Position numbers and translations under genes: made by a program. Below, in pieces: positions 2,230 to 64,000 of a stretch of 64,000 bases of DNA (the stretch's first letter is position 1; each line of letters starts with the position of its first letter). The DNA lies in NCBI GenBank assembly GCA_964019425.1, contig OZ025798.1:992001-1056000 (forward strand). The letters are read 5' to 3'. Below the pieces are notes generated by a model that worked only from the letters and a program-made list of their open reading frames with translations, made no database searches and had not been told where the DNA came from. This DNA is from Flectonema sp. DT1601 (lineage: Eukaryota).

Positions 2230-2574
2230 CAGCCGTACCTCAACATATCTGTAATTTTGTTCCGTTCCGCTGATTATTTTTTGTTCCATTTATTCTTTGC
2301 GTTTACACGTTGCCAACCTCTGTTTTTATATTTTATTGATATTGAATACGATATCAATCGCCATTTACCCCCTGAAAGACTTATTCGTTTACACGAACTT
2401 TCTGTCCCAGCTGCGGGCCATCGTTAGCGCTATTGACTCTTTGCAGGCACGTTTTTCGTTTTATTTATTTATTTATATCAACATGACGGAATACTGTTGC
2501 CTTAACAAGATTACTATAACAGTTACACAACCAGATCACAATAATTTATCATATTCTCTTTAATCAGATATCAC

Positions 2575-5034
2575 ATGTTGAAATTCACAGTAATCCTATT
2601 GCTCTGTGCAGTAGGCGTGTTTGGTGCACCTTTTTCTCTAAATGTGACCAAAGCAGCTGGATGTGGTAAACAATCTCCTTATAAAATAGGAGAGAAGGTA
2701 AAGAGTAAAATAAAAATCCACGATCCTGTTACCGGTGAAGACATGGACAGAGAGTACATGATCTACATCCCTACGGGATACGATGAAACTGCTGAGTTGC
2801 CAGTGATGTTGGTATGTAGAATTTACATAGTAACTAAATAATACAAATATTTGTAATATTCAAAACAAAAACAGGTTTATCATGGATGGGGTTCACATTG
2901 GACGACTTCTCGTCAGGGATATCATCCCGTTGGGGAACCAGGTATGGAATTTAAAAATTAAATCATCACATTCAATTCTTATTCACACTTCTCTTTGTTT
3001 TCTCCTTTCTTAAATTAAAAGTTGGTTTGACTTATCCTAACTTGCTCGACCAGATTGAAGAACTGATGTCAATTATTCGAATTAATCATCGATTATGTGG
3101 AAGAATCTCCGAATAACAAAGAGAGTTGTAAAACTAAGTCACCTTCACAAGAATGATGGCGAGGCATGCACACTACTAAAAGAACGATTGCCTGCAGCAT
3201 TCTGTACCCGCGGAAGACATCGAGAACAAGAACGGTTTCAAGAGGTTAGCAAACTACCACAAGAAATAGAGAAATTAGTGAACGAAGGCTACGAAGTTGG
3301 AGAAATGACGCTGAGCTGTGCCATAGCACAGTGCAAACGTTCTAAAGTGGGGCAAACTACTGGGTTGGAACAAGCTTTTAAAATATTAGATAAAGCATCG
3401 AGTCTAAAGATCCCCCACGACTCTGAAAGAATAAAGACTTCAATTATATCTGTGGCGTCATCAATTGGTAATTTAGAAACCTTTTACATCACCGTTAAGA
3501 AACTTGGTATTAATATGTCGAAACCATCAATTGTAGTAATAGGAGATCTGTTGAAAACTCTTTCTATTTGTAAAGCTCCATGGGAAGATATTCAGAATGT
3601 CTGGAAAGATATTGAAGAAGCGAAACTTCAACCAACAATGCAAATTTTCCACGCGATGATGAAATGCTCTCGTACGATATCTCAAATGACGTGGGTATTT
3701 AACACCCTGACTAAGTATGACTACGAACCTGACGTTAACATTATCGGAGCTGCTATTGCAACAGCTGGTGTTGCAAAACGTTTTGACGTCGCTGGAATGT
3801 TATACAACAAATGCTTGTCTGATAATCATCTTCAACCCAACATGTACGTTCGAACATCACTGCTATACGCTTCAATAAGTTGTAAGGGTGAGAGTGGTAT
3901 TGACTTCGCTATTGAACAGATTGAAAAGAACTTCGAAATTACACCATCGACACTACAGCTTATTATCTCTTCTCACCCATCATTAAAATCTGCATCATCT
4001 TTGCTAAAAAAATATAATAGTATCGCTGATGACAAGGTGCGAAGAACACTTGAATGTCGCAAATCAAAAGATAAACATATTAAAGCTAACCGAAGAGTTA
4101 CTTTACAACAATTGCGTTCTAAAAGTAGTTTAAGAAAAAGCATCTCAACTAATGAAAGCAAATCTAAAAAGAAAACCTCCTCCTCGATGACTCTACTCTT
4201 CAACATGACAGCTCCAGATTAAATTAGGGAAGGCGGAAAAAGCAGCGATCACAACAACTGAAAACAAGAAAAAGAATAAAATAAAAAATAAAAAAAATAA
4301 AAAGAAGACAGAGCTAACAATACAAAACATAAACAGATAAATACATGACCATCTACGTCAAGGGTATGGATGATATGTCTGGATTCGGTTCAAAGGTTTC
4401 TTGGAACTGTGGTAATGCAGGAGACTTAGTTTCGTGCACATCAGAAGCAAATGGAGATTGCTACGACAGTTGTAACAAGATTGGTAAATGTAGTCGATGC
4501 AACAGTTACACTTGTGTTGACGATGTTCACTTTACAAAACTACTACTGGAAAGGATCCTTAGTGAACTTTGCATTGATACCAAGCGTTTGTACGCAACTG
4601 GATACTCAAATGGAGGTCAATTCATGTATGACCTCGCTTGGGGTCTTCCAGTTTTCGCAGCGATTGCACCACTTTGTGGAACTCCTTTTGCAGGTAATGT
4701 CAGAGTACCAAATCAAATTGAAGAGACGGCATTAGTTCACCTTCACACTACTGGTGATAAAACTATTCCGTACAACGGAGGTGTTTCATACGAACACTGG
4801 ACATACACCGCTGTTAAAGATATTACAAGAATGTGGGCTGATGTCCATTCCTGTTCCGATAAAGAAAAACCACTTCAAACACCTTGGGATGGTAAGGATG
4901 AACTCTCATGTCACGCCTACATGTGTCCAAGAGACAGTGTTGTTCATTGCAGTATGTCAGGAGGACACACTCACTTCCCTTCTTGGGGATATGCGTTTAA
5001 CTGGTGGGCTCTCAGTAAGTACGTTAGAAAATAA
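2575..5034 (+). CDS. Secreted alpha/beta-hydrolase of the LpqC / PHB-depolymerase-like esterase family, 333 aa, 3 exons
   Basis: Exons 2575-2811, 2875-2941, 4337-5034 join in frame (phase 0, then phase 1 G|AT=Asp), giving LPVMLVYHGWG and GEPDKYMTIYVKG. Signal peptide MLKFTVILLLCAVGVFG; nucleophile GYSNG; Asp motif HTTGDKTIP; His in GGHT. Confidence 0.85.
2812..2874 (+). other. Spliceosomal intron 1 of esterase (63 nt)
   Basis: GTATGT ... CAAAACAAAAACAG; removal restores the xxHG motif. Confidence 0.9.
2942..4336 (+). other. Spliceosomal intron 2 of esterase (1395 nt), hosting a nested same-strand ORF
   Basis: GTATGG ... ACAAAACATAAACAG; phase-1 junction keeps the frame into the 4345 ORF. 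Confidence 0.8.
3095..4222 (+). CDS. Pentatricopeptide-repeat-like protein (375 aa), intronless, nested in esterase intron 2; possible mitochondrial presequence
   Basis: ~35-aa periodic helical motifs (KPSIVVIGDLLK, LQPTMQIFHAMMK, YEPDVNIIGAAIA, LQPNMYVRTSLL); basic N-terminus MWKNLRITKRVVKL; pyrimidine tract ~2975-3011 upstream. Confidence 0.7.
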   Translation: MWKNLRITKRVVKLSHLHKNDGEACTLLKERLPAAFCTRGRHREQERFQEVSKLPQEIEKLVNEGYEVGEMTLSCAIAQCKRSKVGQTTGLEQAFKILDKASSLKIPHDSERIKTSIISVASSIGNLETFYITVKKLGINMSKPSIVVIGDLLKTLSICKAPWEDIQNVWKDIEEAKLQPTMQIFHAMMKCSRTISQMTWVFNTLTKYDYEPDVNIIGAAIATAGVAKRFDVAGMLYNKCLSDNHLQPNMYVRTSLLYASISCKGESGIDFAIEQIEKNFEITPSTLQLIISSHPSLKSASSLLKKYNSIADDKVRRTLECRKSKDKHIKANRRVTLQQLRSKSSLRKSISTNESKSKKKTSSSMTLLFNMTAPD

Positions 5035-5568
5035 ATAATTCAAATTCTGATTTCTTTTTTTCAAATTGATATCCCATCGGCTTTTTTTAAAGTTGAAAAA
5101 AAATTTTCTTTCAAACAATAAATTGTAGTTTTTTCTCCTTTTATATGTTGTTTTTGAAAGTTTTCAAAAAAAAAAAAAAAAAATTAACCGATCTTTTGGG
5201 ATGACCAAAAAGCGTTAATATCTTCACGTGCTGACATACTAGTTATTTATACCTGGTCGTGTTTTGAATATTTTTGTCCTCTTCTTCGTATGGTGGCTTA
5301 TAATTACATCTGTCTTATGTACTTTTTGTTAATTTTATTTTATTTCGACCGAATTTTATCATTCGGGGAGGGTGACTAATATATCTCTGATTTGTGGTAT
5401 TGTAATCGTTTTATAGCTGACGCTTCGAAAAGACCGAAAAAAAAAAAAAAAAAAAAAACGGATGGGAAGAAGAAGAAGAAAAAACATAATCCCATCTGAT
5501 ATTACTATGCTTTAATGAATGGTAAAACTTTTTATTACATCGTCTTTTTCCTTAACAGAATATTTACC

Positions 5569-7830: not shown

Positions 7831-8204
7831 TATACATTCCCGTCTGGGAGAGGACGATTTAAATATGTTTTTATTTTCCCCCCAAAAGCTGACGGAAAGG
7901 CACATTCATAAGTAAATTCCGATTTTTTTTTTTTTTTTTTTTAAAATTTGTTCTAAAAACCTGAACTGAAAAAAAAAAAAAAAAGAAAAAAAATAATAAT
8001 AATGTGTTCAGCTTGTGTTTCGCTCATGGTTAATGTACGACGTTAACGATTTTGCAATTTCATTTTTTTATTAAATTTATCCCTACAACACAGATTGTGT
8101 GTACTAGCTTCAGCACTGTTGACATTCAGTCATAATTGATTTCATCAAGTGAACTGATGTGTGTTAGTTTATTTATCAATCAGGAGAAGGGGAAAAAAAA
8201 AAAA

Positions 8205-9905: not shown

Positions 9906-10341
9906 CAATCTGTAAAAGCGAGTTAAACCATAAAAGTATACATAGAGAACTGACTAAAGAAAATATAAAGACTTCCACAACCTACTCTACTGTTATATTA
10001 TAACACTTTTTTTAGGGATGTTGGAAGTCAATTAATTTATGTGTCGTTCTCAATTCGGTAGCTTTCCCTCATTGTTTTTGATTAGTTTTGTACCCCAAAA
10101 CCTCAGTTCGAGAGACGTATCTGTTTCTGCTACTGTTTTACTGTATTTATTTTTAATTTTCTTTTTTTTTTTTTGTTGTTGTTTTTTTTTATTATTTTAT
10201 TCATTTGCCTGTTTTAGGCAATGTCATATCTCCCTATTTAGAAACGTGTTCGTGCAGCTAATAATTGTTGTTGTTCTGATTGGTTTATGTGTACTTTTTT
10301 TTTTCAACAGAGATATTTACAAAAGAGTAAATAAAAAAAAA

Positions 10342-10974: not shown

Positions 10975-13027
10975 TAATCTAAAAAAATGGAAAAAAAAAA
11001 AAAAAACAAACTTTGAAAAAAAAAAAGGAAATTTTTTTTTTTTTTTTTTTTCTCGACGGGTTTCACTTTGTCATTTTATTTTATTATACAAAGTATGCGA
11101 AAATAAGAAGTAAATGTAACACCATTCGAGAGTATTTTCTTGAAGCACGCTGCTGCCTATTTTTTTTTTTTTTTTTTTTTAAAAAAAAGGAAGTGATGCA
11201 ATTTCGCTTTTTATTGGCTGGCAGTGTTGATTTCTTAGGATTGTTTTTTTTCTATATTTTTTTTCATTATTTATCTAAAACCGACAAAGTGTATCGTACA
11301 CACAATTAAGCTGTGTTACTGAATACTCGTTATCAATTTTTTTTTTTTTTTTTTCTCTTCCAAGTATGTAAGGCAACTCGAAGGTCTGTAGTTCACTGTC
11401 AGACTTTGGTACTCACTGTGATTTCGATTTCGAAGAAAAAGAAGTTTTGTTACCACTTTGTGGTTCCTTCATCAGATTGGAAGCTTTCTGAGTTTGGGAA
11501 ATACAATTATGAAAAAAGTAAAAAAAAAAGAATGTTATCGCACCTCATCGCACCTCATTCCAAAAACGTGGGTGTTGGAATTAATACTAGACACTGCGTA
11601 AGTTGTCTATTTTTTTTCATTTACGGGTTCATAACATCATTAGTCCATACATACACATAGTTGTTACCATCTCTCTCTCTCTCTTTTCTTTTTTATTCTT
11701 CCTGGTTTCTTATATTAATTCCGAAAGTGAGTAAATAAAAATATAAAAAATTAAAAAATAAATAAATTTGATACATCACGACCTTACCTGTTTTATTATT
11801 CTGGTTCAATGTGCGGAATGTTCAGTATATTTAAAAAGGAGGTTAGTTTTTCCAATCGTTGTTTTCGATTACTTAAATCCGTAAGTCATTTTGTGATTTC
11901 CGTTTTTTCTTTTTTTTTTCTTTTTTTTGATATTGTTTCTTTGATTGCGCAGAGAGGAAAAGAAAAAAAAAGGTATATCCCCCAGTAGCCAAAATCCCCT
12001 CTCCCCCCTCATCCAAGTCCCCCCTTTTTTTTTGTTTTTTTTTAACCTTCACTGCTAAGTGTGTTTAATCTCCGTTTTAAAAAGAAAAAAAAAAAAAAAA
12101 AAAAAAAGAACCAAAATCGAATCTAAGCCGGGATGATATTTGTCGTTCCGGTTATTTTGGTTTAATCCGATTTTAGCAAAGACTTTGTTTAAAATAACGC
12201 TCTTCATTCATTGCATAAGTGAATTTTCATAGTGAGGTATATTGCTTCACACCCCCCCACACGTCATTATTTGACTCTCCACTCTCTGCAAGCTACCCCT
12301 GTAGGATGATATCGTCGTTCTTCAGTTGCGCAGCTGCAGATATAATTTTAATTACTAGGCATTTTGCTTGGTCCTTTTGTTCGTGTATCCCTTCTCCCTC
12401 CCATGGTGTTTTCACTCTCCGTAAGTTACATTGGACAATCTTGTTTATTGTGCAGCTTTGGATTACTGAGCATTCTATAAGAATGCTTCATCGATTGGGA
12501 GGGAGTGCTGATGGGGAAAATTTCTTTCTTTTTCAGTTTTGAGACAATTCTAATATTCTGAAGTCTAGAACTTATGTTTATTTATTTATTTATTTTTAAG
12601 CCTCAAAAAAGATATTCGGTGAAGGCAAAAGACGATTTTTCTTTTTGTAAGGGTGCAATTATTTTTATGGGTTTTTTCAAACGATCCGTTCTGTGTCGCA
12701 GATATTTTGCGATTTCATACTCGTAGATTGGAAGAATAAATCTCAGCACCGTTTGTCTTTGTCAGTTTACCAAGTCTTAAGAAAGGAACGACACAGTCTC
12801 AGACTCAAACTGATAACTTCTACTTCTGTAGTTGCTGTGCTTCCTGACATTATTTATCATTTTTCTTTTTTTTTTCAATTAAGCCTCCCATCCCAGTTCT
12901 TTAACAAGAGGGAATGGAAAAGCCTTCGTTCTCATCTAGGAGACTTGTGATGTGCCTATTGCGTTACAGGCTGATGCGCACGACTCTTGGAGAAGGAGTT
13001 ATAGCGAGGGTGTTAAATTTCCTTCTC

Positions 13028-13060
<33 letters not shown>

Positions 13061-15364
13061 AATGCAATAAAGCCACTGGCAAAAGCAGATTTTTTTTTTA
13101 TTTTCCAAGCAACTTAAATTTATTTATATTTTTTTATATTGTAAGCACTTCTCAGTTGCAGCGGTTAGACAGTCACAGAGGCGCAAAAGGAAAAATTAAT
13201 CCTCAGACCTAATAAACTATGTGCGTGTGTGATACCTGACTTATATAAGACATCATTATTTATCCTACATACCTAACCATGACGTAACTTGAGATGAGAA
13301 TGCCGACATTTCTATCAACAGAAGCAAAAATCCTTCTCCTTGAAAAAAAAAAAAAAAACCAAAAAAAAAATTTCAACCAACTTAATTTTCTTTTTTCTTC
13401 TTTTTTTTTTATTCTTGACCAGCTATTGCTTGTTTAATCAGCTACGCCTTTATTTAATCATGGCTAGCGGTGGAGTATGTTTATTAGAGAGGATTACAAG
13501 TGCTAAAGATTGCACAGTTGTTTATTACCGAAACATATCATGCTGGTGAAGAAAATACATTAAAATTACTGAAATTCTTTTTTTTTCTTTTTCTTTTTTT
13601 TTTTCCCCACAGAATGTTTTTGTTGTTATTTTTATCATTATTTTCTGTGCTGTAGATGCGCTCAAGACACCTGTTGTCTGAGCATAAACCCGACACTCAG
13701 AGGAAGTCTTTTTGCTCATTTTTGTAGACTGCCTGAGAGTCACACTGGTGGTGTTAGGAAGAATCATGAAATACTTCGGAGGAAAAAAAAAAAAAAAAAA
13801 AAAAAAAACAACTGTAGAAAACTCCCGTGGTAGATTAAGCAACGGCTCTTTTTACGAGCGGGTACTTATGCTTTCCCCCCTTGGTACTCTTTCACATAGT
13901 GATGGTCTTTCTTTGGACCTGAAACTGTCAACAGATGTTGACGGACACATCAAGCAACATAATGAATGGACAAGTAAAGATTTAAGATAACATTTTTCCC
14001 GCCATTCGAGCAACGTCTTTTTACGACTTGATTCTGTTTTTTTTTATTTACTATTTTTTTTTTTTTTTTTTTTAAATATTTCATTCTAATTATGAGGCGT
14101 ATTTCAGTCTACGCGCAGATCTTTGTAGCTTTTAAGTTTCTTACTTTTTGGGGAAAAAAAAGATTCGCTATCAAAAGCTGAAAACGTCGATTTATACGCA
14201 ACCAATCTCGTCCTTTTGTTAGTACTACAGTCTTATTCTTATTTTGGTACTGTACGCAATTTAGTTGCTTTCTAGATGTCGGATATTGAACTGTATCACG
14301 CATCACACGTAGTTTTATTAGAAGGAATACATTGCTTTTGCTCGCATTATTGAACAGCATCAATATTGCTAACCTCACACCTCCTCATTTCACATCGCAC
14401 ACCCCTATAAGTTACTGTTATCATAAAATACTAACGTTAAATTTAGTTAAATCTGATACAATACATGTATTTATGTCTTTATAAATATGCTCAAACATTT
14501 TTTTTTTTTTTTTTTTACTTCCCTTTTTAAAGGCTGAAGTTTACCCGCTACTGGGATGAGACCAATTTTTTTTTTTTTTTTTTTTTTGAAATGCGCAATC
14601 AAAAGAAATAATGAAAAAAAAAAAAAAAAAGAAAAGAAACGATGGAGAAAAAAAAAAAAAAAAAAAAAGAAAAAAAAAACCCCTTGAAATGGTGTTGTGC
14701 ACTATTTCTTGGTCAAAAAGGAATAAGAAATTTACGTAGTGACTGACTCTATAATGGTACTGTGTAGCTGACTGATTGATTCCAGTACATAGTTCGTACG
14801 TATTTTAAAATGACAACAAGAGTAACAGAGACTGCCGGTGTTCTCAGTAAATCTGGTTGATGTAACCGGTATCTGTTTTTTATTTTTGTTGTTGTGTTTT
14901 TCATTATTCTGATTTCAGGTTTTTTTTTTTGTCGGTGGTTTTTCTTTTGTGTTCCCAGATTCGCTTCAAATTAATAATTAAAAAAAAAAAAAAAGCATTC
15001 TTCGTATCGAAATGTAATTCGTAAATCGTCTTACATATCAAATCAACATCAATATCACCCCTCTAGGTGGGTTCCTTCTTTTCAGAATGTTACTTATCTT
15101 TTGTCTATTCATCAGACGCACGATACATATTACTGTTTTACGAAAGTGTGATTCTGATTTTTCGAATCACGCTTTTTACGTATTTTTACTGATTGTATGT
15201 TTCTCCCTTTTCGACTCGCTACCACTAAAGCAATCGCAACTACCCTTTATGTTTGTTTTAAAAGGGAATAGTGGTAGTAATTATAGTTGGATTAACTTTG
15301 GGGATATACATTTTTGTAAAAACCTACCATCGTATGATGGATGTAATATGAAGTATCGTGAATG

Positions 15365-15404
<40 letters not shown>

Positions 15405-18400
15405 GATTTTCTCCCTGTGCTGATTTTCTAATTAGCACTTTTTGAATTTCGGATGTGATGTACTACTACAAGCCTACGTGGATTCGCTAGATGAAATACT
15501 CGTAGAGTTGAGCCCACCTACATGACGTTCGTTCAAATCGTGTAGTGTTTTTTTTTTTTTTTTTTTTTTTTGACCCCCCCTTTTTTTTTTGTTATGATGA
15601 ATATTGCTTGTTGCTGATATTGTTTTTGAAACGAAGATTGTCTTTTATTTTATATGGACGAACTGCCCCCAATTGGAACCAGAATTGAAAACATCTTATT
15701 ATCTCTACACTTCACATCCCCAATTCAGTTTCGTATGCCTGTCCCAACTCGGACTTTGCATCACTAAGACCAGTGGTAGTGGATTGCTTGCTGAGTCGGA
15801 TGCAAATACTGTGTTGCTGTGCAGGCAATTATTGCTATTTTGTGTTACTGCTGCCCTTGCGCGCTCTTTGAGTCCCCAGCTATTGGGACACAGACGTTGA
15901 AGGAGATGCTAGCGTGCAAGGGTTTCGTATTTTGTATTTTTTTTGCTTTGTTCATTTTTCTTTATTTTCTCCCTTTTGTTCTTGCTCTGCGCTGATAACT
16001 ATTCACCCCTCCCACTTTTTTTTTTTTTTTTTCATTCCATTATTTTATTATCCCCATCTTTTGTTGTCTTTTGCTTTTTATTCCATTTACTCTGACAAAA
16101 GGCATTTATTCTTTAAGCCATGGCTAAGGTCATGGCTGCCTATTGCGGTCATGTGTGAATTGTGTTCATCCCTCTTTGATAAAAAGCAGATTTCTTTTCT
16201 TTTTTTTGCTTCATTCCCTAGAACAAACTCCCTGCGAACAACTACATAAACTTCTTTTTTTTACTCCTGCCTTAAGACGACAAAGGAAAAAAAAAAAGAA
16301 GTACAAAAATAAAAAATGAAATGAAATGAAAATGAACATTATTATTTTTTTCCCCCTTTTTTTTTTCTCTCTATATTATTCTTTCTTTAAGTTAACCATC
16401 ACGCGCTGCATCGCCTGTTGGTTGTGTCATTGCGGGTTGCTTTATTCGAAAACTGTTAGTTTCTTCTTCTTTAGTAAATGGTTACTCCCTTATAAAATGA
16501 AGACGGGGGTAGTTTATTTATTTATATTTATAAGTCGATTATCGAATCTTCCTTGTGAAGATACTCCAATCTTTTTATTCGCTAGCTCTCTGACACTTGT
16601 TTTGTTATTATTAAAAAAAAAAAGAAAAGTTATATTTGATAATCATTTTACGTTCTGGTAGTCGAACATTTTTCCAATCACTGGTCAAGCATTTTCCCCG
16701 TAGTTCGACTTCCCTCGCATGCAATTGCTGCGGGCTTATGGAGGTAATTTTTTTTAAATTGAAGAGGAATAAAATAAATATCAAAATTTTTAAAGTAATT
16801 TTTTTTTTTTTTTTTTAGTATAGTAACAAGCTCAAAGTGCTGAGAGGCAGCCCCGAGTAGACTTTCTTATTACTGCAGTAGATAACAATTTTTTTTTTTT
16901 TTTTTTTTAAAGTTTGTGAGCTCCAGTTCAGTTAAGTACCTGACCTGCGAATTTCTAAGTGCGAACTGCCATGACTATTACAATCTTTGTGAAAACTGTT
17001 ATTTGTTTTAATCAATAGCGAAAATAATGAACACTCGCAGAGTGTCTATCAATGTTCACTTATGTATACAGTCAAAATCTGGCAACTTAAAGGTAACTAC
17101 TATTCTCTTCTAGTGAATATTTAGAATCAGATACTTTTGGAAATGTTAATTCCATGTCTTCCCTAATCCCGTACTCCACGGTAGTGGTGTCGGTTCTTGT
17201 TAGTTACCCAACTATGGAGGTGGGTGTTTTAATGGCAATCACCGCATGCAAATTGGAAAAAGAAAGAAAGAAACCTTTACGAATTCCCTCTTCCCGCGAT
17301 TTCTTTTTTTGCGGATTCCCTATTACCACTCTATCTTTTTTAGGAAATGCTCAACAGAATAAAATCACTTATTAAGTTTTTTCCAGTCTGATTTTTTCCC
17401 CCCCTTCTCAGCAAGCTTTGCTTGTGTTTTATCAGCTATTGTGAATTAGCATATCACGGTGATTAATTTATTCCTTATTTATCGCTATCCTAATCTTGAG
17501 ACCCGATATTTTAACAATTGTTACTCGGGTACTTCTTCTAGATCAAGTTGTGTCGTTTTTTTATTTTATTTTTTTTTATAATCTTTTTTTTTTTTTTTGC
17601 TTCTTAAGGTTTAATCTTGGAAGCTGTCGTCGTTGTTGATTTAATAAGTTGAAAACAAAACCTTAAGGTCTACTTCGTTTCCAACCAACGCAGCTGTTTT
17701 TAGGTAAAAATACAGCGCTTGCTGTAGAGGTTGTCCTACCACATCTGCATATGTTAGTCGTTTCCACTCTTTTATTTTTATTTTTACTCTTTTACTTAAC
17801 CCTAAAAAACCAGGTAACGTAGGAAAGATAAAAGTTATTGTCCTTTTTGATTTGTAAGGGAAAAGTAGTGTGTATGACTTAAAAATGACAGGGTAAACAG
17901 CCCCTGTCCACACTAAATTTCGCACCCAATGTTAGTTGAAAACCTGCTGTTGTATGCAGAGGACGTCGTTGTAACTTTCTTTGTGAGAGTTTTGGGTGTA
18001 GAATCATATTTTCCCTTTACCAATTTGGTGATTCCTGATTTTAGGGTTAATTAAGAATATTTTTTCTTTTTTTATAAAGCACGTTTATCACTGAGTCTTT
18101 GCGGATGCAACTTTCCCAGCAAAGGTCTTCTAGCAAATCACATTCTGCTGTGAAATAATTCCAGCTTCTATTCCACCCTTATTGGCCAGTCCAAATTCCC
18201 AAGAAAGTGCTACTCAAACAGCAAAAAAAAAGATGCCTTATTCACCCTTTTAAACCGCCTTTGAGTGAGTTTTTTTTCCTCCTCTAAAAGTGCTTTGTAA
18301 AGCAGACATCCAAGGGTGAAAAGGTTTTTTTTTCTTTTTTTTCTTATCACAGGAAGACACACGTAGTGATATTATAAAATTATAGTCACTCTTGACAACT

Positions 18401-20131
18401 CTTTGTCTTGTTTATGTCCTCCATATTATTGTTTATCAGCCAAGTACAGAAATCCGAAGGTTTCGTGTTTTTGGAATTTTCTTTTAAATAGTGTTCGTAA
18501 TTTACCCCCTTTTTTTTTCTTTCAATCACTTCCCTCCGGCCCGTTTTTCCTATTGTTTCAGCTTATTACATCTCTCGCGTTTTCAAGCTGGCAGTTCCAC
18601 AACTATGTGGTGTGTGCTTTGGTGGTGACGGTACACGTACTGTTGCTTGTAGTTACAGACTGGTAGACTTAGTATTTAGCCTGCAAGTAGCAAATTCACG
18701 CTTTATACCCGCAGTGGCAATGCCTTCGGTCTCGAAGCTCACATAGAAAAAGACATAACGAAATGAACATCATAAGCGGCAATTCTTAATCATCGTTGTT
18801 GAGCATTGATGATGGTGATCAACTTTAATTAGTATGGCAATGTTTTTTTTTTCTTTCTTTTTCCTTCCTCGAAAAACTATATTATTTTGCCTTCTTTATT
18901 ACTCGATTGGTTGCAAAACCGACCTGTTCCTTACAACGATTGTTGTATTTTTTGATTTCATTATTTTCTCTCCCAACCTTACTTTTTTTCACCCAACCCA
19001 CCCACTCCGCCCTCTGTTGTTTTGCGCACAACACAAAAGCAAAAGTGTGAGAAAAAAAGCATTTCATTTGATTCTGTTGGCCGTTCTTTTTTAGCACACT
19101 GGTGTGCTTGCTTGCGATACTTTGCCTATAATTATCCTCCCAAGTGGGTGGTGTGATGTTTTCTATGTTGTTAACAGAAAATAGGATCAAGAGTAGTTAC
19201 AACCCTCTCGGATAGTTATGGGAAATCACTTGCGACAGTAGTGTCCTTCATATCACTGGAAAAAAAAAAAACTTTTGATTACTTTTAAGTCTTTTTTTTT
19301 TAATTTTTTTTTTTTTATTCTTTCCTCCCCCCACCTCTTATTTTATTACAGTTTTCCAACCCAAAACTCCAGGAGATTGGTTTGCAGACAAGCGTGCACC
19401 TTTCTGAAAAAGATTTGATACGATTTCAGAAGCTGACTTTTAAAGTAAGACAGTAAAGCGGTGTCGATAACTTACCATCCCCGAAAGTGAAAACATTTAT
19501 TGCAGTGGTCTTTGAGAATTTTATTTCTTATCTCAAGGTTGCATCAATGTTTTTTTTTTTTTAAATTTTTTTTTTGGTTTTTTTTACTTGCAAAAAAAAC
19601 TAGTCTCTACTTCAACTCGTCGTAGTTGATATTTTAGTAATGTTTTTTTTTTCCTTTTTCTTTTCGTTTCTCCTCTTATTCTTTCTTTTCAGGGTTAGAC
19701 GCTAGCAGAGCCATACTTAATCGTATTACCGTTTGTGAAGATAGACGGCGAATACCTTTTTTTTTCTTTCTCGTTTTTTCCCCCCTTCATTGTTACAATT
19801 TCTACAATGTTGTGACCACATAATTTACTAAAAAACAACAACAAAAACTAAAGTGTTGCTTTTACATATGAGAAATGGTATGGTAGTGTCAAGCTTTATC
19901 TCCGAATGGTACACTCTATTGAAATTTAAAATAATATAATGCATGTAGTCTAACTGACTTTGTATGACTCTTACTTAGCTGATCAGTATTTTCGTAGATG
20001 TGCTCATTTTTTTTATTTTTTATGTTGTTTTTTCCCTCTTTGTAAAAAAGAACGAAAAAAAAAAAAAAAAAAACTAGAACTAAAAAAAAAATTTAGGTAT
20101 TCGTCACCACCATAAAAAAAATCAGTTTTTC

Positions 20132-20162
<31 letters not shown>

Positions 20163-30832: not shown

Positions 30833-30866
<34 letters not shown>

Positions 30867-37640: not shown

Positions 37641-37953
37641 CCGTTTTTTATACATTTTTATTTATTTACCCAAATTTAAGTATTTTGTTATGTTAAAAAT
37701 AACCAAAACACGTATCGTTTCAAAACTTCAGGTAGTTCAGGTAGTTGTGATCTTTTCAGATGACCAACACACCAAACAAAAAGATCGTCATGTTCTATAA
37801 TAAATTTAATATATCTTACCCCCCATCAGTAGAAACACTTATCCCTCTAAGAAGTACACAGGTAAGACCCCAAAACTGACGATAGGAACTGACAGGGTAT
37901 TGAAGTAATAGTTTTATGGTTTCTTTTTTTTTTATATAGAAACAGCTACAAAT

Positions 37954-49100: not shown

Positions 49101-50178
49101 GCTGGTCAGGCACTGGTTGTGACACTCCAATTAAAATAGGTTGCGAGGTCGTTGCCTTCGAAGATCTTTCTCAGTTCAGCAGCGAAGCAGAAGTTCGCGC
49201 TCGTTGGAAGTTTGACAACTATCACAATTTCCGTTCTTCAGGTCTTCGTTGGCAACACTTTGGATCAAAATTAACCTCTCCTCAATACAATCTCGGTGAC
49301 CACACTCATATAAAATTAGATATTGGTACCCTGATGGTTGACGTACCTAAGAGTGATGATTGTGGAATAGTGGTACGTATTATTACTTTACATCTGGCGA
49401 CAAATATTATTTATAAAATCTCTGCAATCTCACTTGTTCTCAAACACGCGAGACATATTCATTAGATCTCCCCTCTTACCGTATCGTCACTCCTGTAAAA
49501 TGATTATTCTTTGAAGAATGCTTCAGGAGCCTTCCTCGTCGACCTTTTCTCCTTTTGACAATAAACTCATTATATTAGAAATCGATACCGTATCGATACC
49601 CTTTTTACTCAATGAGCTGAGCATCCTTGTTCCACAAAGCATCGATACTCTTGTCAAACTTACAAAGTTTCCCAACTTCTATATTCCAATCCTTGGGCAA
49701 TATCGAATGTTAAAACTCTCTTTGTGACTACCCACCTGGACATTCATTCCTTTATCAAAAACAACAAATCAGATTGGAGTTTCCAGCGGTATTGGAACGT
49801 CGGACTACGAAATAATATACGCCACAGGATGTGAATTGTATGTGTTATATTGTTTCTTTTTTTAAACACCAGCTATTTGGGAAAAAAAAACAAAAAACAA
49901 ACAAAGCTTCTCTGGTTTAAACGTAATTGGACAAGAACGCGGAGATAAGATAGGATTTTTCTCCGTACAAAGAAGATGGTTACCGTCAACGGCTGTAATT
50001 TCTGTTGAGGTTTGGTGGGGAGGATCAAATACGGGTTCATACGTATTTACTATACTAAACTTTCAGTTACAGGTATGTCAAGTTATAAGTACTACCCAAA
50101 CAAATAATAAAACGTTTGTGTTGTCATCAAATCAAAACAAAATTACAGACATGTTCCTGGACTGATATTTCTGCTTAA
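40151..50178 (+). CDS. Giant secreted Cys-rich protein (~3160 aa): inactive leishmanolysin/GP63 (peptidase M8)-like domain, EGF/laminin-like repeats, Pro/Cys repeats, galactose-binding-like jelly-roll, sushi-like units; 4 exons
   Basis: Exons 40151-49372, 49773-49837, 49907-50072, 50149-50178 (third acceptor is AAG). Signal peptide MAVGAAAVFVMIALAG; M8 motifs HGLGF, GAELEN, WEKR, DMGWY, GGDPLMDFCP; EGF motifs such as CNARGSCDENGNCVC. Confidence 0.85.
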
Positions 50179-51747
50179 AAACTGAACCAGAGTAGAGGTA
50201 GTTGTTATTTTTGATATTCCGTTTAGTTTATTTTTACACGACTGTTTTTTGGGCTAAAATTCTTGCTTTACAGCGATTAAGCCAATCGTACTTTAACCTT
50301 CTGTTAGTAATTATATTATTAGAGCTTTATTGTGATTTAGTGTAGGTTTTTTTTTTTTTTTTAATGAAATTCATTTCTAACAACAGGTTTATAATTTATG
50401 TCTACATTCAGACAAAGTAAAATAGAGTCTGCTTATGTTGATACGCTTATTACTTCTATTTTCCATATAAAGTTCATCCTAATAAACAACAATGCTAGGA
50501 CAATGCTTGATGGAATGTTTCTGTGAGATTTTTGGAAGAGCTTTCTTTGCGACAGTTCCGATAAAATGTTGGGCGCCTACCTTAGTAGTAATTTGTTTTG
50601 TAATGGGAATCCATACGTTTTTAAAAAATCAAGCGATGACACCTGTACCGATAATGCATTAGCGCTCCTTCCGATATTCCTTTAACTAATATATATATTC
50701 GCTCACTTGTTTTAATTCAATTTCGCGCTACTGCAGAGTGATGCCATTCTTCTCACTCAAATCATGAAGGCATCTGTCAACAGTCCCGTTACTAATATAT
50801 GCCTTGAAAACTCACAATAAAGAAGATTAGCTATTTTATTTTGTCTTGTTAATTTTTCAAAAAAAAAAAAAAAAAAAGGAAAAAAAGAAATAAATAAAAC
50901 TTTCTTATTTATTTGTCAGTGACAGTCTCTTTCTAACTAAACCTTAACTGAGGAACCTTTGGAGTTGTCGCGTTCACATTATAAAATAGCTTTTTGTTGA
51001 TGTTGTTGTTGATGTTTTTATACCACTCCTCTCGCTTCCGATATCTCACCTTGATCCGACCTTGATCCGTCGCAGTCGTGACCATAAACTGACTGTTATC
51101 TTACTTGATCCTTTTGTTCTCAATTCTTACTGAGTGATACGGCCAGGTGCTGCCCAATAGGTAAGCCCACAGTACAATTATAATGTTGTGGACAACTGGG
51201 GGTGAACGATCCTCGGTACTGTTCCGGGACATAAAGCACATGTGGTCGTATTATAAAGAAAGATGCTGTACATGGAACGAAAAGGATTTATTATTATTTT
51301 TCACCCTCCCCCCTCACTCCCATATCATTTTTCTTTTATTTCCTTTAGTTGTTTTCAACCTGTTAGCCTCTGGAAATGGGAGCTGGAAATCGATTACTTC
51401 TAGCCGAAGCTACAAAACTACAATCTTTACGATTGGATCCTTACTGATGAAGGCTACGCAGACCTCTCGTAGTCATCAGTTCTGTATTTTTCCAACTAGC
51501 TAACACTAACTCATCCTTAACTAGCTTTATGGGTAGTGATTACTGCTATTTTAAACAGCTGTAACTTGGTTACTGTCAGTCGTATTAATTATTTCTTAAT
51601 TCGTAGGGAACAATGATGAACCTAGTGAGGAAATTGTCCTCCGGGGGGGATCGCGGATTGAAATGCTGCCTCGATCGACCTCTGAACTTCTAATGTTGAC
51701 TGTACACAAGTTACACAAAGAAGGGTAATTTTCTTTAAATCAGTTTC
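49965..51747 (+). repeat. Tandem segmental duplication, copy A
   Basis: Near-identical to 51756-53696 over ~49965-50140 and ~50365-51747. Confidence 0.9.
51613..51685 (+). ncRNA. Possible box C/D RNA (second copy at 53573-53645)
   Basis: ATGATGA ... CTGA spanning 73 nt, GC-rich internal hairpins, identical in both duplicated units; no target identified. Confidence 0.3.
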
Positions 51748-51755
51748 TCTTTTCT

Positions 51756-53696
51756 GTACAAAGAAGATGGTTACCGTCAACGGCTGTAATTTCTGTTGAG
51801 GTTTGGTGGGGAGGATCAAATACGGGTTCATACGTATTTACTATACTAAACTTTCAGTTACAGGTATGTCACGTTATAAGTACTACCCAAACAAATAATA
51901 AGACGTTTGTGTTGTCAAATCAAAACAAAATAACACTGAGTCGGGGAGTCTGGTTTCGTGCACAAACAAAAAGTCACAGTGTTATATTATTATTTTCTGT
52001 ATAGTTGAAGATAAAGCCAATTTTTTTAGTGAAATTTATTTCTAACAACAGGTTTATAATTTATTGTCTACATTCAGACAAAATAAGATAGAGTCTGCTT
52101 ATGTTGATACGCTTATTACTTCTATTTTCCATATAAAGTTCATCCTAATAAACAACAATGCTAGGACAATGCTTGATGGAATGTTTCTGTGAGACTTTTG
52201 GAAGAGCTTTCTTTGAGGCAGTTCCGATAAAATTTTGGGCGCCTCCTTTAGCAATAATTTGTTTTGTAATGGGAATCCATACGTTTTTACAAAATCAAGC
52301 GATGACACCTGTACCGATAATGCATTAGCGCTCCTTCCGATATTCCTTTAACTAATATATATATTCGCTCACTTGTTTTAATTCAATTTCGCGCTACTGC
52401 AGAGTGATGCCATTCTTCTCACTCAAATCATGAAGGCATCTGTCAACAGTCCCGTTACTAATATATGCCTTGAAAACTCACAATAAGGAAGATTAGCTAT
52501 TTTATTTTGTCTTGTTACATTTTTTTTTTTTTTTTACTTGGAGTAACGATCAGATGCTATCGTTTCAAAAAAAAAAAAAAAAAAAGGAAAAAAAGAAATA
52601 AATAAAACTTTCTTATTTATTTGTCAGTGACAGTCTCTTTCTAACTAAACCTTAACTGAGGAACCTTTGGAGTTGTCGCGTTCACATTATAAAATAGCTT
52701 TTTGTTGATGTTGTTGTTGATGTTTTTAAACCACTCCCGCTTCCGATATCTCACCTTGATCCGACCTTGATCCGTCGCAGTCGTGACCATAAACTGACTG
52801 TCATCTTACTTGATGCTTTTGTTCTCATTTCTTACTGAGTGATACGGCCAGGTGCTGCTCAATAGGTAAGCCCACAGTACAATTATAATGTTGTGGACAA
52901 CTGGGGGTGAACGATCCTCGGTACTGTTCCGGGGCATAAAGCACATGTGGTCGTATTATAAAGAAAGATGCTGTACATGGAACGAAAAGGATTTATTATC
53001 TTTTTTCACCTTCCCCCCTCACTCCCATATTATACCCTGGTTTTGGTTTCCCAGAGCTCGCGATTAATTCGTAATTGAATAACTCGATTCCGTACTGCAC
53101 TGAATGACAACACGGAAAAAGAGATGTGTATGCAGATAAGTTAGAAACATTTATTATAATGTAGAGCAAGTACGTCAATTGCAGAGTGTTAGCCTGTATT
53201 AATATTTTACTCACTGTATCATGAGTTTTTTATTATTGAGTTCTGATACAATACAGAGATTTATATTCGTATGTCACTCCCATATCATTTTTCTTTTATT
53301 TCCTTTAGTTGTTTTCAACCTGTTAGCCTCTGGAAATGGGAACTGGAAATCGATCACTTCTAGCCGAAGCTACAAAACTACAATCTTTACGATTGGATCC
53401 TTACTGATGAAGGCTACGCAGACCTCTCGTAGTCATCAGTTCTGTATTTTTCCAACTAGCTAACACTAACTCATCCCTAACTAGCTTTATAGGTAGTGAT
53501 TACTGCTATTTTAAACAGCTGTAACTTGGTTACTGTCAGTCATATTAATTATTTTTTAATTCGTACAGAACAATGATGAACCTAGTGAGGAAATTGTCCT
53601 CCGGGGGGGATCGCGGATTGAAATGCTGCCTCGATCGACCTCTGAACTTCTAATGTTGACTGTACCTTTGCAGTTAATTTTCTTTAAATCAGTTTC
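51756..53696 (+). repeat. Tandem segmental duplication, copy B (starts with a duplicated fragment of the penultimate M8-gene exon and its donor)
   Basis: gtacaaagaagatggttaccgtc at 49965 and 51756; last exon absent; extra ~45-bp and 243-bp segments. Confidence 0.9.
53019..53285. mobile_element. 243-bp segment flanked by 12-bp direct repeats (possible small insertion with TSD)
   Basis: TCACTCCCATAT at 53019-53030 and 53274-53285; copy A has a single TCACTCCCATAT at ~51314. Confidence 0.45.
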
Positions 53697-54112
53697 ACAC
53701 ATGCCACAAGAAAAACGAATATTTATGTCCAGTTGTAATTATTATTGTTTTTACTATTAAAGTAGGTTTACGATAGCTATATTATGCTTGGAGAGTTTGC
53801 TGTGAGGGTTTTAGCAAAGATTTTCTTCGAGTCAGTTCCATCGAAATATTGGGGTCCTCCACTGACGATATTTGTTGTTATTGTCATGCTGTACAAAATT
53901 ATACGAAATCAGATCGCGACTCCCACCCTGATGTCACTTGTGCCATCTGCTTAGAAGATTGCTAACTTCAATTTGGAAATGTATTATGGAACAGTAGAAC
54001 AATGTGTTTTCATAGTTTTTCTTGTTTATATTTTAATTTAGTGCACTTTTTTATAGCAAATATGTGTTTCCCCCCTCTCAGTTATTACGATTTAACACAA
54101 TTTTATCTAAAA

Positions 54113-54721: not shown

Positions 54722-56014
54722 CCCTCAAATCTCTCTCTTTTTTATTGCCGTTATCCTCTAGCTTGGGCATTGCCCTTCTTCATTATTCTTGTTTACCTCT
54801 TTTTCCTGTCGACATATTTTCTTCGATGGGAAATGGAGTTTTTATTATTCAAATTAAGACAAATTGAAACGTGTGTGAAAACAAAAAAAAACAAAGACGT
54901 TAGGCATACGACAACTCGGCTTTGGTACACCTATATGACTTCTTGTCTGTTGGTGAAACTCGGTTCTTCGAATTTTTATAAATCCTTAGTACTACACGAA
55001 GCATGTGGCCACTGTTGCTCTCATATCGAGTGATATGCACCAACCTTTGGGGCCGCGCTTTGGGGCGCGTTGTCCTCTGTGTTTTCCGTCGAAAAAAAAT
55101 CCGTTTAAAAAAAAATCATCTATTCGTATTATTCTATCTCTACTTATTAGTTGCATATGTTTATCATCGCCAGCCGAGCGAAGAAGGTTTCGCTATATAT
55201 CTTTTTATAGCGTTGTACATTGTTTTTCTTGTTACAGAAAAGTACTTTTGTAAGTTTTAATTACATTTTTCTATCTATTCGTTTTTTTCATTTTTTTTTT
55301 TCATTTATTGTTATTTTTTGACCACGCCTAAAAAATAGTAGTCAATACTCCACTTATTTTCAATGTGGACTGCAGACCTTGTTGTTGCTTTGCTGGCGGC
55401 CTCAAGTCAGTCTTTTTCACTCTCATATTGGGGGTGAGCTGGTTATAACCGGTTAGACATCAGGGCTTGAGCTTTCAACTTTAATAGCCCTATCGGCTTT
55501 GATGGACCGCGCTTTGCTCGAGGGATGTATGTCAGTTGGAAAAAAAAAAAAAAAAAAAAAAAACGATTATTAAACAAAAATCCCCTCTCAATTCCTCTTA
55601 TACGTAAAATGGAATGCATGAGAAAAAAAATAGAGCCAAGTCTCTTAATGCAAACTTACAGAAGAATTATCTGTCGTGTTTTCCTCCCAATTTCTCACTA
55701 ATTACCTGGGCCCGGGTTGAGATCCTTTTCCTCTCTGACAACGCCTCTGTCGTTGTCTTTTTTATTTTAGCTTTTTCGCTCTCGATTCTTTATTTTATTA
55801 TTATTTTTTATTTTATTTTCCTCGCTATTAGTGGGGCTTTCGGATGGCTGGTCCACAGCAAATCATTTTATAGTATCTGTTTTAAATCATCGTTGTGATA
55901 ATTTTAGTTGACAATTCCAGGTAGTAAAAAAATGACGAAAAGGAAAACCAAAGCTTTTGATTGCTAATTATTATTATTTTATAAAAAAAAAAAAAAGGTT
56001 TTTATCATAAAAAT

Positions 56015-57418: not shown

Positions 57419-57676
57419 GGTGTACATTATTATAACATAGCGGAACTTTAATAAATAAAAATTTATGCGTACGTTACCAACCTACTGTTTAGGATTTTAT
57501 ATACAGGTTGTCCAAACAACGCGATTGCTAACAGCTTCTCAAAAATAAAAATAAAATATATTTATTATATTATTTCAAGTAGAATTACTTAATGAAGTGA
57601 GAGAGCTGTTTCTTGAAAAGAATGAGGTGAATCCTCTTCATAGCATTACTTCTCCTCAGAACTCAAAAAAAAAAAA

Positions 57677-58393: not shown

Positions 58394-58779
58394 TCGATTT
58401 GTCTGGGTTCTATTCTATGTGCGTTTTTTGTCGTCTATATATTTCATTTTTTCATTCTAAACGTTCAAAAACATAAAAATTTGTAAAGTTTTTGATTAAT
58501 TCACCAGCCATAACTAAAGTTATGTATTTTAACACTTTTATTTATTTAAATTGAAAACCGCAATTGGCAGCAATGAACAGCTATTTTCTGAATTGGCTGC
58601 AACACATGTGATCTGGCGTGCATAAACATTATTTTCGCATATGGATGTCGTCGCTGTGAAGCAAACTCCGCATTCTGACGACCATCCGTAGTGCTTGTGA
58701 TTCCAATCGCATCTTTTTAGTGTTGTTTTTTGTAATTTTGTTTTTGCTCAGCTACATCACCTCCACAAATACATAATAA

Positions 58780-60894: not shown

Positions 60895-61433
60895 ACTGCT
60901 ACCTGATGACAATATTTCGACTGCTGATTTACTTCCAGATCCTCACTTTAGATTTACTAATCTGTAGTACTTGTGGTGTAAAGACTATTCAGTTAGACAT
61001 TTGAAGGCAACCGTTAAGCGTTGGTTTAGTTTGTGTGTGTTGTGTTGTGCTATTCTTGTCCTTTAACCCAATAACCTTGAGGAAGGTACTTGCTATTTAT
61101 GTCTGTAAGATTTCCTCTGACAATGTTTTATTATTTTTATTTTCTCTCATTGTAATTTTTAACAACATTTAGTGTTGTTTTATTACTCTCTTTTTTTTTT
61201 TTTTGACCTCTCTTTTTTTTTGCAATTTACGTGAGCTGTATATTATCTCACCACAAACTGGGGGTGACAGGGTTTCTTCTATTCTTGGTTGTTGTTAGAA
61301 ACCTTTTTTTGTATCTTCTTAACGCCTCGTTATCACAACAACTGGTTGATGATCTGCTAACGAAATGTTGAACTGTGAACTTTGTATTAATAAACCTTCT
61401 CTTCCTCAGGTATACGTCGGTACACATAAGAAA

Positions 61434-61948
61434 ATGCCGCGTAGAATTGTAAAAGAGGCAACACCGCCACCAGATCAGGTGTGATATTAATTAATTATTC
61501 GGTTTAATATTCATCTCGAAAAACATAAAATAACAATCTAAAAAACAGGAGGAACTTGAAAAGAAGGAAGAAGAATCGTTTAAAACTGGTCCGTTCTCAC
61601 TTCTCACAGAGGCAGTGAAAGAACAGTGCCAAGTTTTAATAAATTGCAGGAATAATAAAAAGATTATCGCCAGAGTGAAGGCATTTGACAGGCATATGAA
61701 TCTGGTATTGGAAGGAGTGCAGGAAATATGGACTGAGGTGTGTATCTTTTTTTTTTTTTAAATTTTTTTTGTATCCCTTCCAATCAAAAATAAGTTCACT
61801 GAGCTCTAACAAAACAACAATACCACAGTTACCAAAACCTGGTAAAGGGAAGAAAAAATCGAAACCGAGAAATAAATTTCGATTTATGCAAAAGATGTTT
61901 CTGAGAGGAGATTCTGTAATTCTAGTCGTTAAGAACAGAGAGGGATAG
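61434..61948 (+). CDS. SNRPD2: Small nuclear ribonucleoprotein Sm D2 (117 aa), 3 exons; absent from the ORF track
   Basis: Exons 61434-61478, 61549-61737, 61829-61948 translate to ...[60 protein letters not shown]...[13 protein letters not shown]. Confidence 0.95.
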
Positions 61949-62090: not shown

Positions 62091-62368
62091 ATAGGTCAGC
62101 AATACCGATTTGCTGACGTTATTGAGTGTACCCTACTGCAGATACTTGTTGCTGACATTATTTCTTTAATAGGATATAATCATATTAAATAATTTGTCAT
62201 ATATTTTACAGGTGAGCTTTGTATTGTTGGATGCTGCTGTTGGAGAGTTTTTTTGTAAATGTTTTTTTATTACACATGTTTGTTTTCTCGCAGGAGCTCT
62301 CCCAACCAAAACCGGCCCCCGTAGCCTAAACACAGTTTCTGTGTTTTATTTAAAAAAAGTAAGAAAAG

Positions 62369-64000
62369 ATGTCAAACGCCGTGGAAAGTCTATTGCAGAG
62401 GCTCAACCTGCAGCAGTACACGTCGGTGTTTGAGGAGCAGAACATCACTAACCCGAAGATTTTGAAAAGTCTTTCTGATGAGGATTATGAAAAGATGATC
62501 CCAGATAATAGAGACAGAGAAATTCTTATCAAAGCGGTCAGCAGTGATTCTCACCAGAAAGGCGGAGGATTCCGTGAAGACCGTCGCGATTACTCCTACG
62601 GCGGGGGAGGTAAGGGAAAGGGCTTCGGAAAGGGAGGAAAGAAGGGCAAGAAGGGAGGAAAGAAGTACGGTGGAGGGTACAACAATGACATGTACGACAA
62701 CTTCAGTGGAGGAAAGGACTACGGCGGTAAAGGTTACGGAAAGGGAGGAGGTTACAAGGGTAACAGAGACAGACAGGACTTCAACAACTACGACGACGTC
62801 CCTACTGATGACGACCTCATGAAGGACGGAAAGGTATGTTCTTATTAATAAATTATAAATCATAATTATAATCTCTTAATATACTTCTTAATAATAAACA
62901 GGGAGGACCACAAGTACTTGAAGTTACCGTCACAATCCCATCATTCACTGTTCCATTCTTGTTAGCAAACAAGGCACAGAAGCTGAACAGTATCCATCAC
63001 AAGTACAGCACTACTAACAGTAGAATGAACAAACCTGAAAAGCCAAACACCTCAAAGGATGAAGATACCACATTCAGCTTATACGGACCAGTATGTCATT
63101 TTTTATTTAAATAGAACAAAGTGTTTAGGTTTCTGAGATGAAATATAAATTACAAACAGCCTGGTGATGTTGAACAAGCTAAGGCAGAAATTGAAAGACT
63201 TGTTGGTATTGAACGTCGTAACAAGTCTGAGATGAGATTTCAGGAAGCGTTGTTGGGAAGAACAAAGACAATCACTTCATTGTTGTACGCTCTTAACGAA
63301 CGTCGTGCAAACTTGGGGCTTGACACTGCACTTGCTTCAGAAACCATCCCAGAACACGTTTCCAAATATCTATTCTGTAACCCGTACGGACACATTAGAC
63401 AGTTTGTTATTAAGGTTCCAGAGAGATCAAGATCAAAGGTTGACATCATGGGTAAGATGCTTCACAAGGTTGCAAGTTGTCAAACTCTTGTGTTCTGCAG
63501 TAACGCTGAGCACATTGAGGACATTCTGTTGAAGAGAATTAAGCCTGAGCAATTGAGTGGATTACAACCACAGTTCGTGTACCCTGATTTACCAAAGGAC
63601 AAGAGAGCCAAGGTACTCGAAGAATTCGCAAAGGGTAAAGGTCCATTAGATAAGATTACTTACGTTAAGCGGAAGAACGAGGATGAGAAGGAGAAGACTG
63701 ACAGAAAGAACCTTGAGGACGAGTACGACATACAAGAAACCAACGTTGGAGGTTACGCTTCGGATAAGAACAGATTCTTAATCTCGACTGACGACTACGC
63801 GAGATTTGCGAGAAAGAATCCTATTCCTTACGTCAACCTCGTCTTCTGTTACGATTGTCCAAAGACTAAGGTATTTAATTTTAATGTTTTCTGTTCCAAT
63901 ACAAGTTAATAAATTGTCGACTTTCTAAAAACAACAACTACAGGAATCATACCTTCACAGAATTGCTTGCTGTGGAAGAGGAGGAAAGGCGGGTGTTGCA
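62369..64000 (+). CDS. SAM + Gly/Lys/Tyr-rich + degenerate KH + DEAD-box helicase C-terminal (RecA2) domain protein; 3'-truncated
   Basis: Exons 62369-62833, 62902-63090, 63160-63870, 63944->64000. SAM LQRLNLQQYTSVFEEQNI; KH VTIPSFTVPFLLANKA...LYGPPGDVEQAKAEIERL; QTLVFC, FLISTD, YLHRIACCGR. Confidence 0.8.

Follow-up and report, generated by a model that had tools for sequence, protein, structure and literature searches.

We analysed a 64,000-nucleotide (nt) stretch of contig OZ025798.1 from Flectonema sp. DT1601, referred to below as the window, for the sequences that precede two kinds of 3' splice site: the ends of cis-spliced introns and the AGs in front of genes, where a spliced leader (SL) may be added. 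The study covered this one 64-kb window, protein homologues, and published work, and set 17 intron ends against 17 gene-front sites. The window has a G+C content of 39%, and all open reading frames longer than 160 amino acids lie on the + strand, forming a co-oriented gene cluster. Its Cid14-type poly(A) polymerase shared 83% identity with that of F. neradi, 57% with those of D. ambulator and D. japonicum, 54% with that of D. papillatum, and about 40% with those of trypanosomatids; the closest protein relatives are diplonemids, and the host was therefore placed within Diplonemidae, close to Flectonema. D. papillatum transcribes clustered genes together, and practically every one of its mRNAs bears the spliced leader (PMC10161547), so that an earlier note on this DNA was right to assume SL addition on polycistronic precursors. 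Telling an intron AG from a leader-addition AG is a problem for a cell with polycistronic transcription, most acute in intron-rich diplonemids.

Seventeen GT-AG introns were modeled in eight rebuilt genes, and every join yielded one open frame. This reproduced the number of introns given in the earlier note, and the eight intron ends and 11 gene-front AGs quoted there were all found at their coordinates. The donors were GTATG in 13 introns, GTGTG in two, and GTACG and GTATT in one each, while the acceptors were CAG in 16 introns and AAG in one. With 17 of 17 introns being GT-AG, the non-canonical type of euglenids and hemistasiids (non-GT-AG ends) was not encountered. Fourteen introns were 63-101 nt long. 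Seven junctions (both of those in the poly(A) polymerase, all three of the EDRF1-like gene, SmD2 intron 2, and the ALG-2 intron) were fixed by homologues, independently of base composition; the remaining ten were placed by open frame and splice-site consensus only. In the esterase, exon 3 matched feruloyl esterases (E = 7e-9), and the sole two matches of exon 1 at E <= 10 were ferulic acid esterases (E = 1.1), giving weak support. A search for relatives of esterase exon 3 recovered only exon 3 itself (1 of 57 candidates), and exon 1 had no atlas match above 0.80. When further introns were sought, 1 of 17 intergenic GTATG sites had an A-rich AG 45-130 nt downstream, and no extra intron set emerged. 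The introns are listed below, with base fractions scored at positions -20 to -4 relative to the AG.

2812-2874, + strand: esterase intron 1; A 0.71; open frame, GT-AG ends, weak family support
2942-4336, + strand: esterase intron 2, 1395 nt, containing a nested gene; A 0.71; open frame
24895-24960, + strand: EDRF1-like intron 1; A/C-rich end; junction confirmed by homologue alignment
25208-25272, + strand: EDRF1-like intron 2; poly-A end, A 0.94; junction confirmed, with a one-residue gap nearby
25404-25488, + strand: EDRF1-like intron 3; repeat-like A-rich end, A 0.82; junction confirmed
28052-28152, + strand: intron of an unnamed 783-amino-acid gene; A 0.59; open frame and GT-AG ends only
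29968-30489, + strand: intron of the ALG-2/PEF-family gene, 522 nt; A 0.53; exons abut on the Leishmania ALG-2 chain 1y1x
39376-39456, + strand: Cid14/TRF4-type poly(A) polymerase intron 1; A-rich end; 27-codon gap against diplonemid homologues, spliced form aligns through
39601-39684, + strand: poly(A) polymerase intron 2; A 0.53; 28-codon gap against P0002
49373-49772, + strand: leishmanolysin-like intron 1, 400 nt; A 0.65; open frame and ends
49838-49906, + strand: leishmanolysin-like intron 2; ends in AAG, A 0.82; open frame and ends only
50073-50148, + strand: leishmanolysin-like intron 3; A 0.71; open frame and ends only
61479-61548, + strand: SmD2 intron 1; A 0.71; open frame; the alignment of exon 2 to human SmD2 begins at residue 14
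61738-61828, + strand: SmD2 intron 2; A 0.65; exons 2 and 3 meet between residues 76 and 77 of human SmD2
62834-62901, + strand: SAM/helicase-like intron 1; the least clear of the 17, with A 0.47 and T 0.41; open frame and ends only
63091-63159, + strand: SAM/helicase-like intron 2; A 0.65; open frame and ends only
63871-63943, + strand: SAM/helicase-like intron 3; A 0.59; open frame and ends only

The ALG-2 intron holds a tandem repeat at 30013-30407 (150-nt unit, 2.6 copies, 97% matches).

Composition of intron ends and gene-front sites

The 17 intron ends had a mean composition of A 0.65, C 0.17, G 0.01, and T 0.17, and A exceeded T in every one of them. The rest of the same introns had A 0.35 and T 0.42 (p = 3e-5 versus the ends); since T falls from 0.42 in the body of the introns to 0.17 at their ends, the bias is local and does not reflect the introns as a whole. 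Its onset near -20 is sharp, and it does not reach beyond the final 20 bases. Intron ends also differed from the sequences before 203 intergenic CAGs (A 0.28, T 0.37; p = 9e-10) and 714 exonic CAGs (p = 2e-9), and their A bias opposes the T-rich sense strand (intergenic T 0.38). When the seven homologue-confirmed introns were taken alone, A was 0.64 and T 0.15, and the contrast between the classes held (p = 3e-4). A pyrimidine tract adjoining the AG, scored as a run of at least 8 ending no more than 15 nt from it, was found in none of the 17 introns. The earlier description of introns as ending in A-rich sequence with no adjoining polypyrimidine tract was thus borne out.

Ranked by A minus T among the YAGs of its intron, the frame-restoring site came first of five in the 522-nt intron, first of four in the 400-nt intron, and second of 23 in the 1395-nt intron; in the ALG-2 intron, four more pyrimidine-rich YAGs were passed over. 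None of five branch-point patterns was enriched in either class (p 0.3-0.8), YTRAY being present in 8 of 17 introns versus 6.9 expected from shuffles.

The gene-front AGs of the earlier note were hand-picked, covered 11 of 17 genes, and were all pyrimidine-rich. Here, a blind rule was applied to all 17 genes, taking the closest CAG upstream of each start codon. The resulting sites are listed below, with pyrimidine fractions unless another base is named.

2548-2567, + strand: candidate leader acceptor of the esterase; 0.71; closest CAG, 7 nt before the ATG
3034-3053, + strand: candidate leader acceptor of the nested gene; 0.65; a 14-nt run ends at -43
5539-5558, + strand: candidate leader acceptor of the lipase gene; 0.77
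8164-8183, + strand: candidate leader acceptor of the gene at 8205; 0.65, T-rich
10291-10310, + strand: candidate leader acceptor of the cyclin gene; 0.77
21500-21519, + strand: candidate leader acceptor of the EDRF1-like gene; 0.88
26496-26515, + strand: candidate leader acceptor of the gene at 26538; 0.89
29518-29537, + strand: candidate leader acceptor of the ALG-2 gene; 0.53, not above background
31355-31374, + strand: candidate leader acceptor of the adenylate cyclase gene; 0.71
37926-37945, + strand: candidate leader acceptor of the poly(A) polymerase; T 0.59; possibly the end of an intron of the 5' untranslated region (5'UTR) starting at 37862 instead
40129-40148, + strand: closest CAG upstream of the leishmanolysin-like signal peptide; an exception in being A/C-rich; start uncertain, frame open from 39995
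54062-54081, + strand: candidate leader acceptor of the gene at 54113; 0.82
55901-55920, + strand: closest CAG before the FAD oxidoreductase gene; doubtful, being 94 nt away with an upstream ATG
57640-57659, + strand: candidate leader acceptor of the gene at 57677; 0.70
58732-58751, + strand: candidate leader acceptor of the gene at 58780; 0.71
61390-61409, + strand: candidate leader acceptor of SmD2; 0.76
62274-62335, + strand: front of the SAM/helicase-like gene; T-rich CAG at 62293 (chosen in the earlier note), nearer CAG at 62335 in a possible leader-like relic

The two-class composition contrast is real, with A-rich intron ends on one side and T-rich gene-front CAGs on the other. The 17 blind-rule CAGs had A 0.24, C 0.22, G 0.07, and T 0.47 (p = 1.5e-6 versus intron ends), and A exceeded T at two of them versus all 17 intron ends. 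Their pyrimidine content was 0.69, compared with 0.54 at intergenic CAGs (p = 1e-4), and 10 of the 17 reached 0.7. A pyrimidine run close to the AG, scored as for introns, occurred at 9 of 17 gene-front CAGs versus 0 of 17 introns (p = 9e-4), and position -4 was A at 5 of 17 versus 14 of 17 (p = 0.005). The closest AG before the start was a CAG in 11 of 17 genes, whereas a fraction of 0.23 was expected (p = 3e-4), as would be the case for real acceptors. C content was alike in both classes (0.17 in introns and 0.22 at gene fronts, p = 0.28), so the contrast is one of A versus T, and the label "A/C-rich" that the earlier note had given to the cis class was rejected. The gene-front side of the contrast is softer than the 11 sites of that note imply, and the intron side is stronger. 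The finding that 16 of 17 CAGs lie within 41 nt of the start, with a fraction of 0.38 expected, was not relied on, its cut-off having been taken from the data. The 17 presumed 5'UTRs, which run from candidate leader sites to starts and total 420 bases, were 50% A.

An A/C end was also seen in another diplonemid. The genomic protein P0006, which clusters at 90% with an R. humris protein, reads through the same intron of the poly(A) polymerase, and a +1 frame shift after 17 codons restores the next exon (14 of 14 residues), indicating a 52-nt intron. Its end is repeat-like, and the last 17 scored bases were fixed as six A and five C, with no fixed T or G; the spliced form is found in R. humris P0236. 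The position of poly(A) polymerase intron 1 is common to the diplonemid genomic proteins P0006 and P0009, with similarity lost at the same codon. Other presumed read-through ends are unverified and carry little weight: those of P0089 and P0093 are A/C-rich and that of P0090 is C-rich. A search of metagenome contigs for relatives of the poly(A) polymerase alignment gave 558 pattern matches, none of them confirmed. The query P0232 had been listed in the cluster of a gene to which it proved unrelated, and its 19 loci were left out.

The gene nested in esterase intron 2

The longest intron contains a complete gene on the same strand, which makes it a ready test case for the sorting of cis- and trans-splicing.

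3095-4222, + strand: nested intronless gene of 375 amino acids, possibly PPR-like, within the esterase intron at 2942-4336

The sole relative found was the transcript-derived Flectonema neradi protein P0079 (56% identity), in which a PPR_3 match was weak and below the cut-off. The closest CAG, at 3053, lies 41 nt before the ATG of the nested gene, with one upstream ATG between, and 112 nt past the host donor at 2942, slightly beyond the short-intron range of 63-101 nt. To restore its own frame, the host esterase needs an A-rich acceptor 1.4 kb from that donor, past the pyrimidine-leaning CAG at 3053. In doing so it skips 82 AGs, none of which joins as an open in-frame esterase. Between the stop of the nested gene and the host acceptor there are only about 115 bases, which are A-rich. 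The earlier note had suggested that a splice-site code explains how the nested gene is marked; this is weakly supported, because the candidate site at 3053 is only moderately pyrimidine-rich (0.65).

Proposed sorting of cis- and trans-splice acceptors

We considered that U beside the AG recruits the spliced leader, and that introns have been selected to lack U there while their donor commits them to cis-splicing; we hold this with about even confidence. We infer that the gene-front CAGs are leader sites. A U-rich tract before the AG would direct spliced-leader addition together with polyadenylation of the upstream RNA, the U beside the AG acting as the trigger, as in trypanosomes. In introns, the roughly 17-20 bases before the AG would stay rich in A, poor in U, and free of G, and removal in cis would proceed through pairing with a nearby GTATG-type donor. 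Leader addition inside a gene would cut it in two, and selection against this may have led introns to lose U at that position, with A taking its place in this organism and either A or C in others. The A tract might be read by a divergent U2AF65, by another RNA-binding protein, or by none, many As serving as possible branch points.

The A-rich intron ends themselves have a published counterpart. Thakur et al. (2025, PMC12621601) report that A outnumbers each of the other bases in the tract of D. japonicum, and the introns of this species resemble those of the window in having GT-AG ends, GTATG donors, CAG acceptors, and A where a pyrimidine tract would normally stand. The same paper reports weak A in the tracts of L. 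lanifica and R. humris and a preference for C in the others, and its logos across diplonemids show C- or A-rich tracts, with CA-rich motifs in several species. The Flectonema-like genus studied here lies outside its six species. The portions of that paper drawn on here contain no analysis of leader acceptors and read the A tract as spliceosome flexibility, not as cis/trans sorting. The contrast with leader sites and the proposed purpose appear to be unpublished: no comparison of both acceptor classes in diplonemids was found in the literature covered, although Additional file 1 of PMC10161547 (sections 4 and 5, on introns and UTRs), which was not covered, may show one. The parts of PMC6053224 and PMC1297651 consulted hold nothing on cis versus trans sorting. 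If genome-wide, the contrast would supply a functional explanation that the published A-rich ends lack, and if it holds it would improve gene prediction in abundant marine protists.

Better-known systems share parts of this arrangement. As in trypanosomes, same-strand genes are probably polycistronic, a putative pyrimidine tract and AG stand shortly before the start, and introns would run the risk of internal leader addition. In T. brucei reporters, U20 performed best, C17 was inactive, and purines were harmful, with polyadenylation coupled to leader addition about 100 nt upstream (PMC9639853). The three introns of trypanosomes keep their pyrimidine tracts (PMC11613528), and in T. brucei cis- and trans-splicing compete on these few introns, the PTB-like DRBD3 being needed (PMC12592628); here, in contrast, the intron end is without a tract. 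In Schistosoma mansoni, trans-spliced sites are more U-rich than cis-spliced ones (PMC5832876). Sequence thus biases the cis/trans choice there as well, but the difference is graded within pyrimidine tracts, whereas in the window T dominates at gene fronts and A at intron ends. Euglena gracilis is likewise a euglenozoan with many introns, leader addition, and CAG ends; however, its conventional introns and outrons share one C-rich tract (PMC11170887), a single type for both classes and the opposite of what was found in this window.

Several observations weigh against the proposed sorting of acceptors by U. Eight of the 17 introns hold pyrimidine runs of 8-26 nt whose ends lie 29-70 nt upstream of the AG (in the three long introns, the scan covered the final 100 nt), among them a 26-nt run ending at -43 in poly(A) polymerase intron 1; in a trypanosome, such upstream runs might serve as leader signals. 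Because the runs always end 29-70 nt upstream, only the AG-adjacent position has been cleared, and the earlier claim that cis-introns avoid pyrimidine tracts is right next to the AG but fails further upstream. The claim that gene-front AGs follow T/C-rich tracts was likewise upheld by the CAG rule but not by a rule taking any AG, which gave no pyrimidine enrichment over background (p = 0.17). The seven blind-rule sites absent from the earlier note equaled background in pyrimidine (p = 0.38), although they still differed from introns (p = 5e-4), and two blind-rule sites (40148 and 62335) are A/C-rich. Away from genes, 16% of the 203 intergenic CAGs are equally pyrimidine-rich (>=0.7), so the tract is not sufficient. 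At two gene fronts, a donor-like AG/GTRAG (37862 and 62212) stands 55-110 nt before a T-rich CAG, a coincidence spotted after the fact for which 0.17 was expected; these could be donors of 5'UTR introns with U-rich ends, breaking the rule. Among published diplonemids, C and not A is dominant in five of six, and D. japonicum has normal U2AF1/2 (PMC12621601). The presumed intron end of P0096, unverified, is a mixed tract, and in P0218, from a close relative, an A-rich stretch, also unverified, runs up to a possible CAG that lies four codons upstream of the presumed start and counts against the proposal if it is a leader site. Finally, the contrast is drawn from a single window with 17 versus 17 sites.

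It is quite possible, though somewhat unlikely in our view, that donor pairing alone decides between cis and trans, with the A-rich end being a short-intron recognition element or a branch-point-rich zone and the contrast a by-product. The rule that the leader goes only to acceptors without an upstream donor is the standard model for animals with spliced leaders (PMC1488885). Short introns with strong donors predominate in the window, long U runs are tolerated further upstream in introns, and the lack of an enriched branch-point motif fits the use of any nearby A. GTATG was seen 55-110 nt before none of the candidate leader sites, with 0.72 expected, a difference that is not significant. However, the donor at 2942 meets a CAG 112 nt on, before the nested gene, and yet the host needs the distant A-rich site. 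Schistosoma, moreover, trans-splices within donor-containing introns, preferring U-rich sites (PMC5832876), so that pairing alone does not protect an intron there.

Neutral drift, in which short introns freed from the pyrimidine tract accumulate A and CA microsatellites limited only by the avoidance of new AGs, seems improbable. Several ends are indeed simple repeats (25272, 25488, and 24960), intergenic DNA contains A runs (49) as well as T runs (69) of at least 8, and the scarcity of G is expected from AG exclusion; but all 17 ends favor A in sense-strand non-coding DNA that favors T, the shift is sharp near -20 with the rest of the same introns T-rich, and the A/C end recurs in another genus (P0006). 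We give very little credence to the view that the gene-front class is largely a selection artefact of T-rich intergenic DNA and hand-picking, with the true leader sites lying elsewhere and perhaps resembling intron ends. The any-AG result, the seven background-like sites, and the presumed 5'UTRs, half A with AGs inside, speak for it. The blind closest-CAG rule, with its enrichment over background, mostly excludes it, CAG is over-represented as the closest AG, and in both trypanosomes and Euglena leader sites as a rule have a pyrimidine tract (PMC9639853, PMC11170887).

A bolder proposal, which we think unlikely, is that each diplonemid nucleus has two 3' splice-site routes, U2AF65 for U-rich leader sites and a second factor, possibly a diplonemid-specific U2AF65-like family, for A- or CA-rich introns. 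A diplonemid-gained family annotated as U2AF large subunit is present in three of four diplonemids beside the universal one, and a PTB-like family is expanded in diplonemids (PMC10161547 file 5; both annotations unverified). The first of these fits the prediction of a duplicated or divergent U2AF65 in the earlier note, and both also speak for the main proposal. If the two-route proposal were true, an intron could house a whole same-strand gene, whose expression would depend on whether their common precursor is spliced in cis or in trans.

Other features of the window

An Rfam search of the window returned no families. The region at 10975-21520, about 10.5 kb, has no convincing gene, is T-rich on the sense strand, and was blank in Rfam; it may be a long 3'UTR, a non-coding RNA, or a spacer. 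Before the FAD oxidoreductase gene, 55921-55997 may be a 77-nt 5'UTR intron with an A-rich AAG end, the removal of which would delete the upstream ATG.

Two sense-strand stretches, 29453-29471 and 62332-62352, resemble the 3' end of a euglenozoan spliced leader and lie 122 nt before the ALG-2 start and 36 nt before the SAM/helicase-like start, respectively. They have in common a 10-mer that occurs twice versus 0.28 expected, and the 12 bases at 29453 equal the leader core printed in PMC7859406. They may be remnants of mRNA retroposition; both genes contain introns today.

The leishmanolysin (peptidase M8) family protein encoded at 40151-50178 has 3160 amino acids, with a long extension past the protease domain. 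The end of this gene and the region downstream are duplicated within 49950-53660 as four blocks of 191-504 nt with 96-98% identity; in the copy, the donor is kept at 51864 and the acceptor appears to have been lost.

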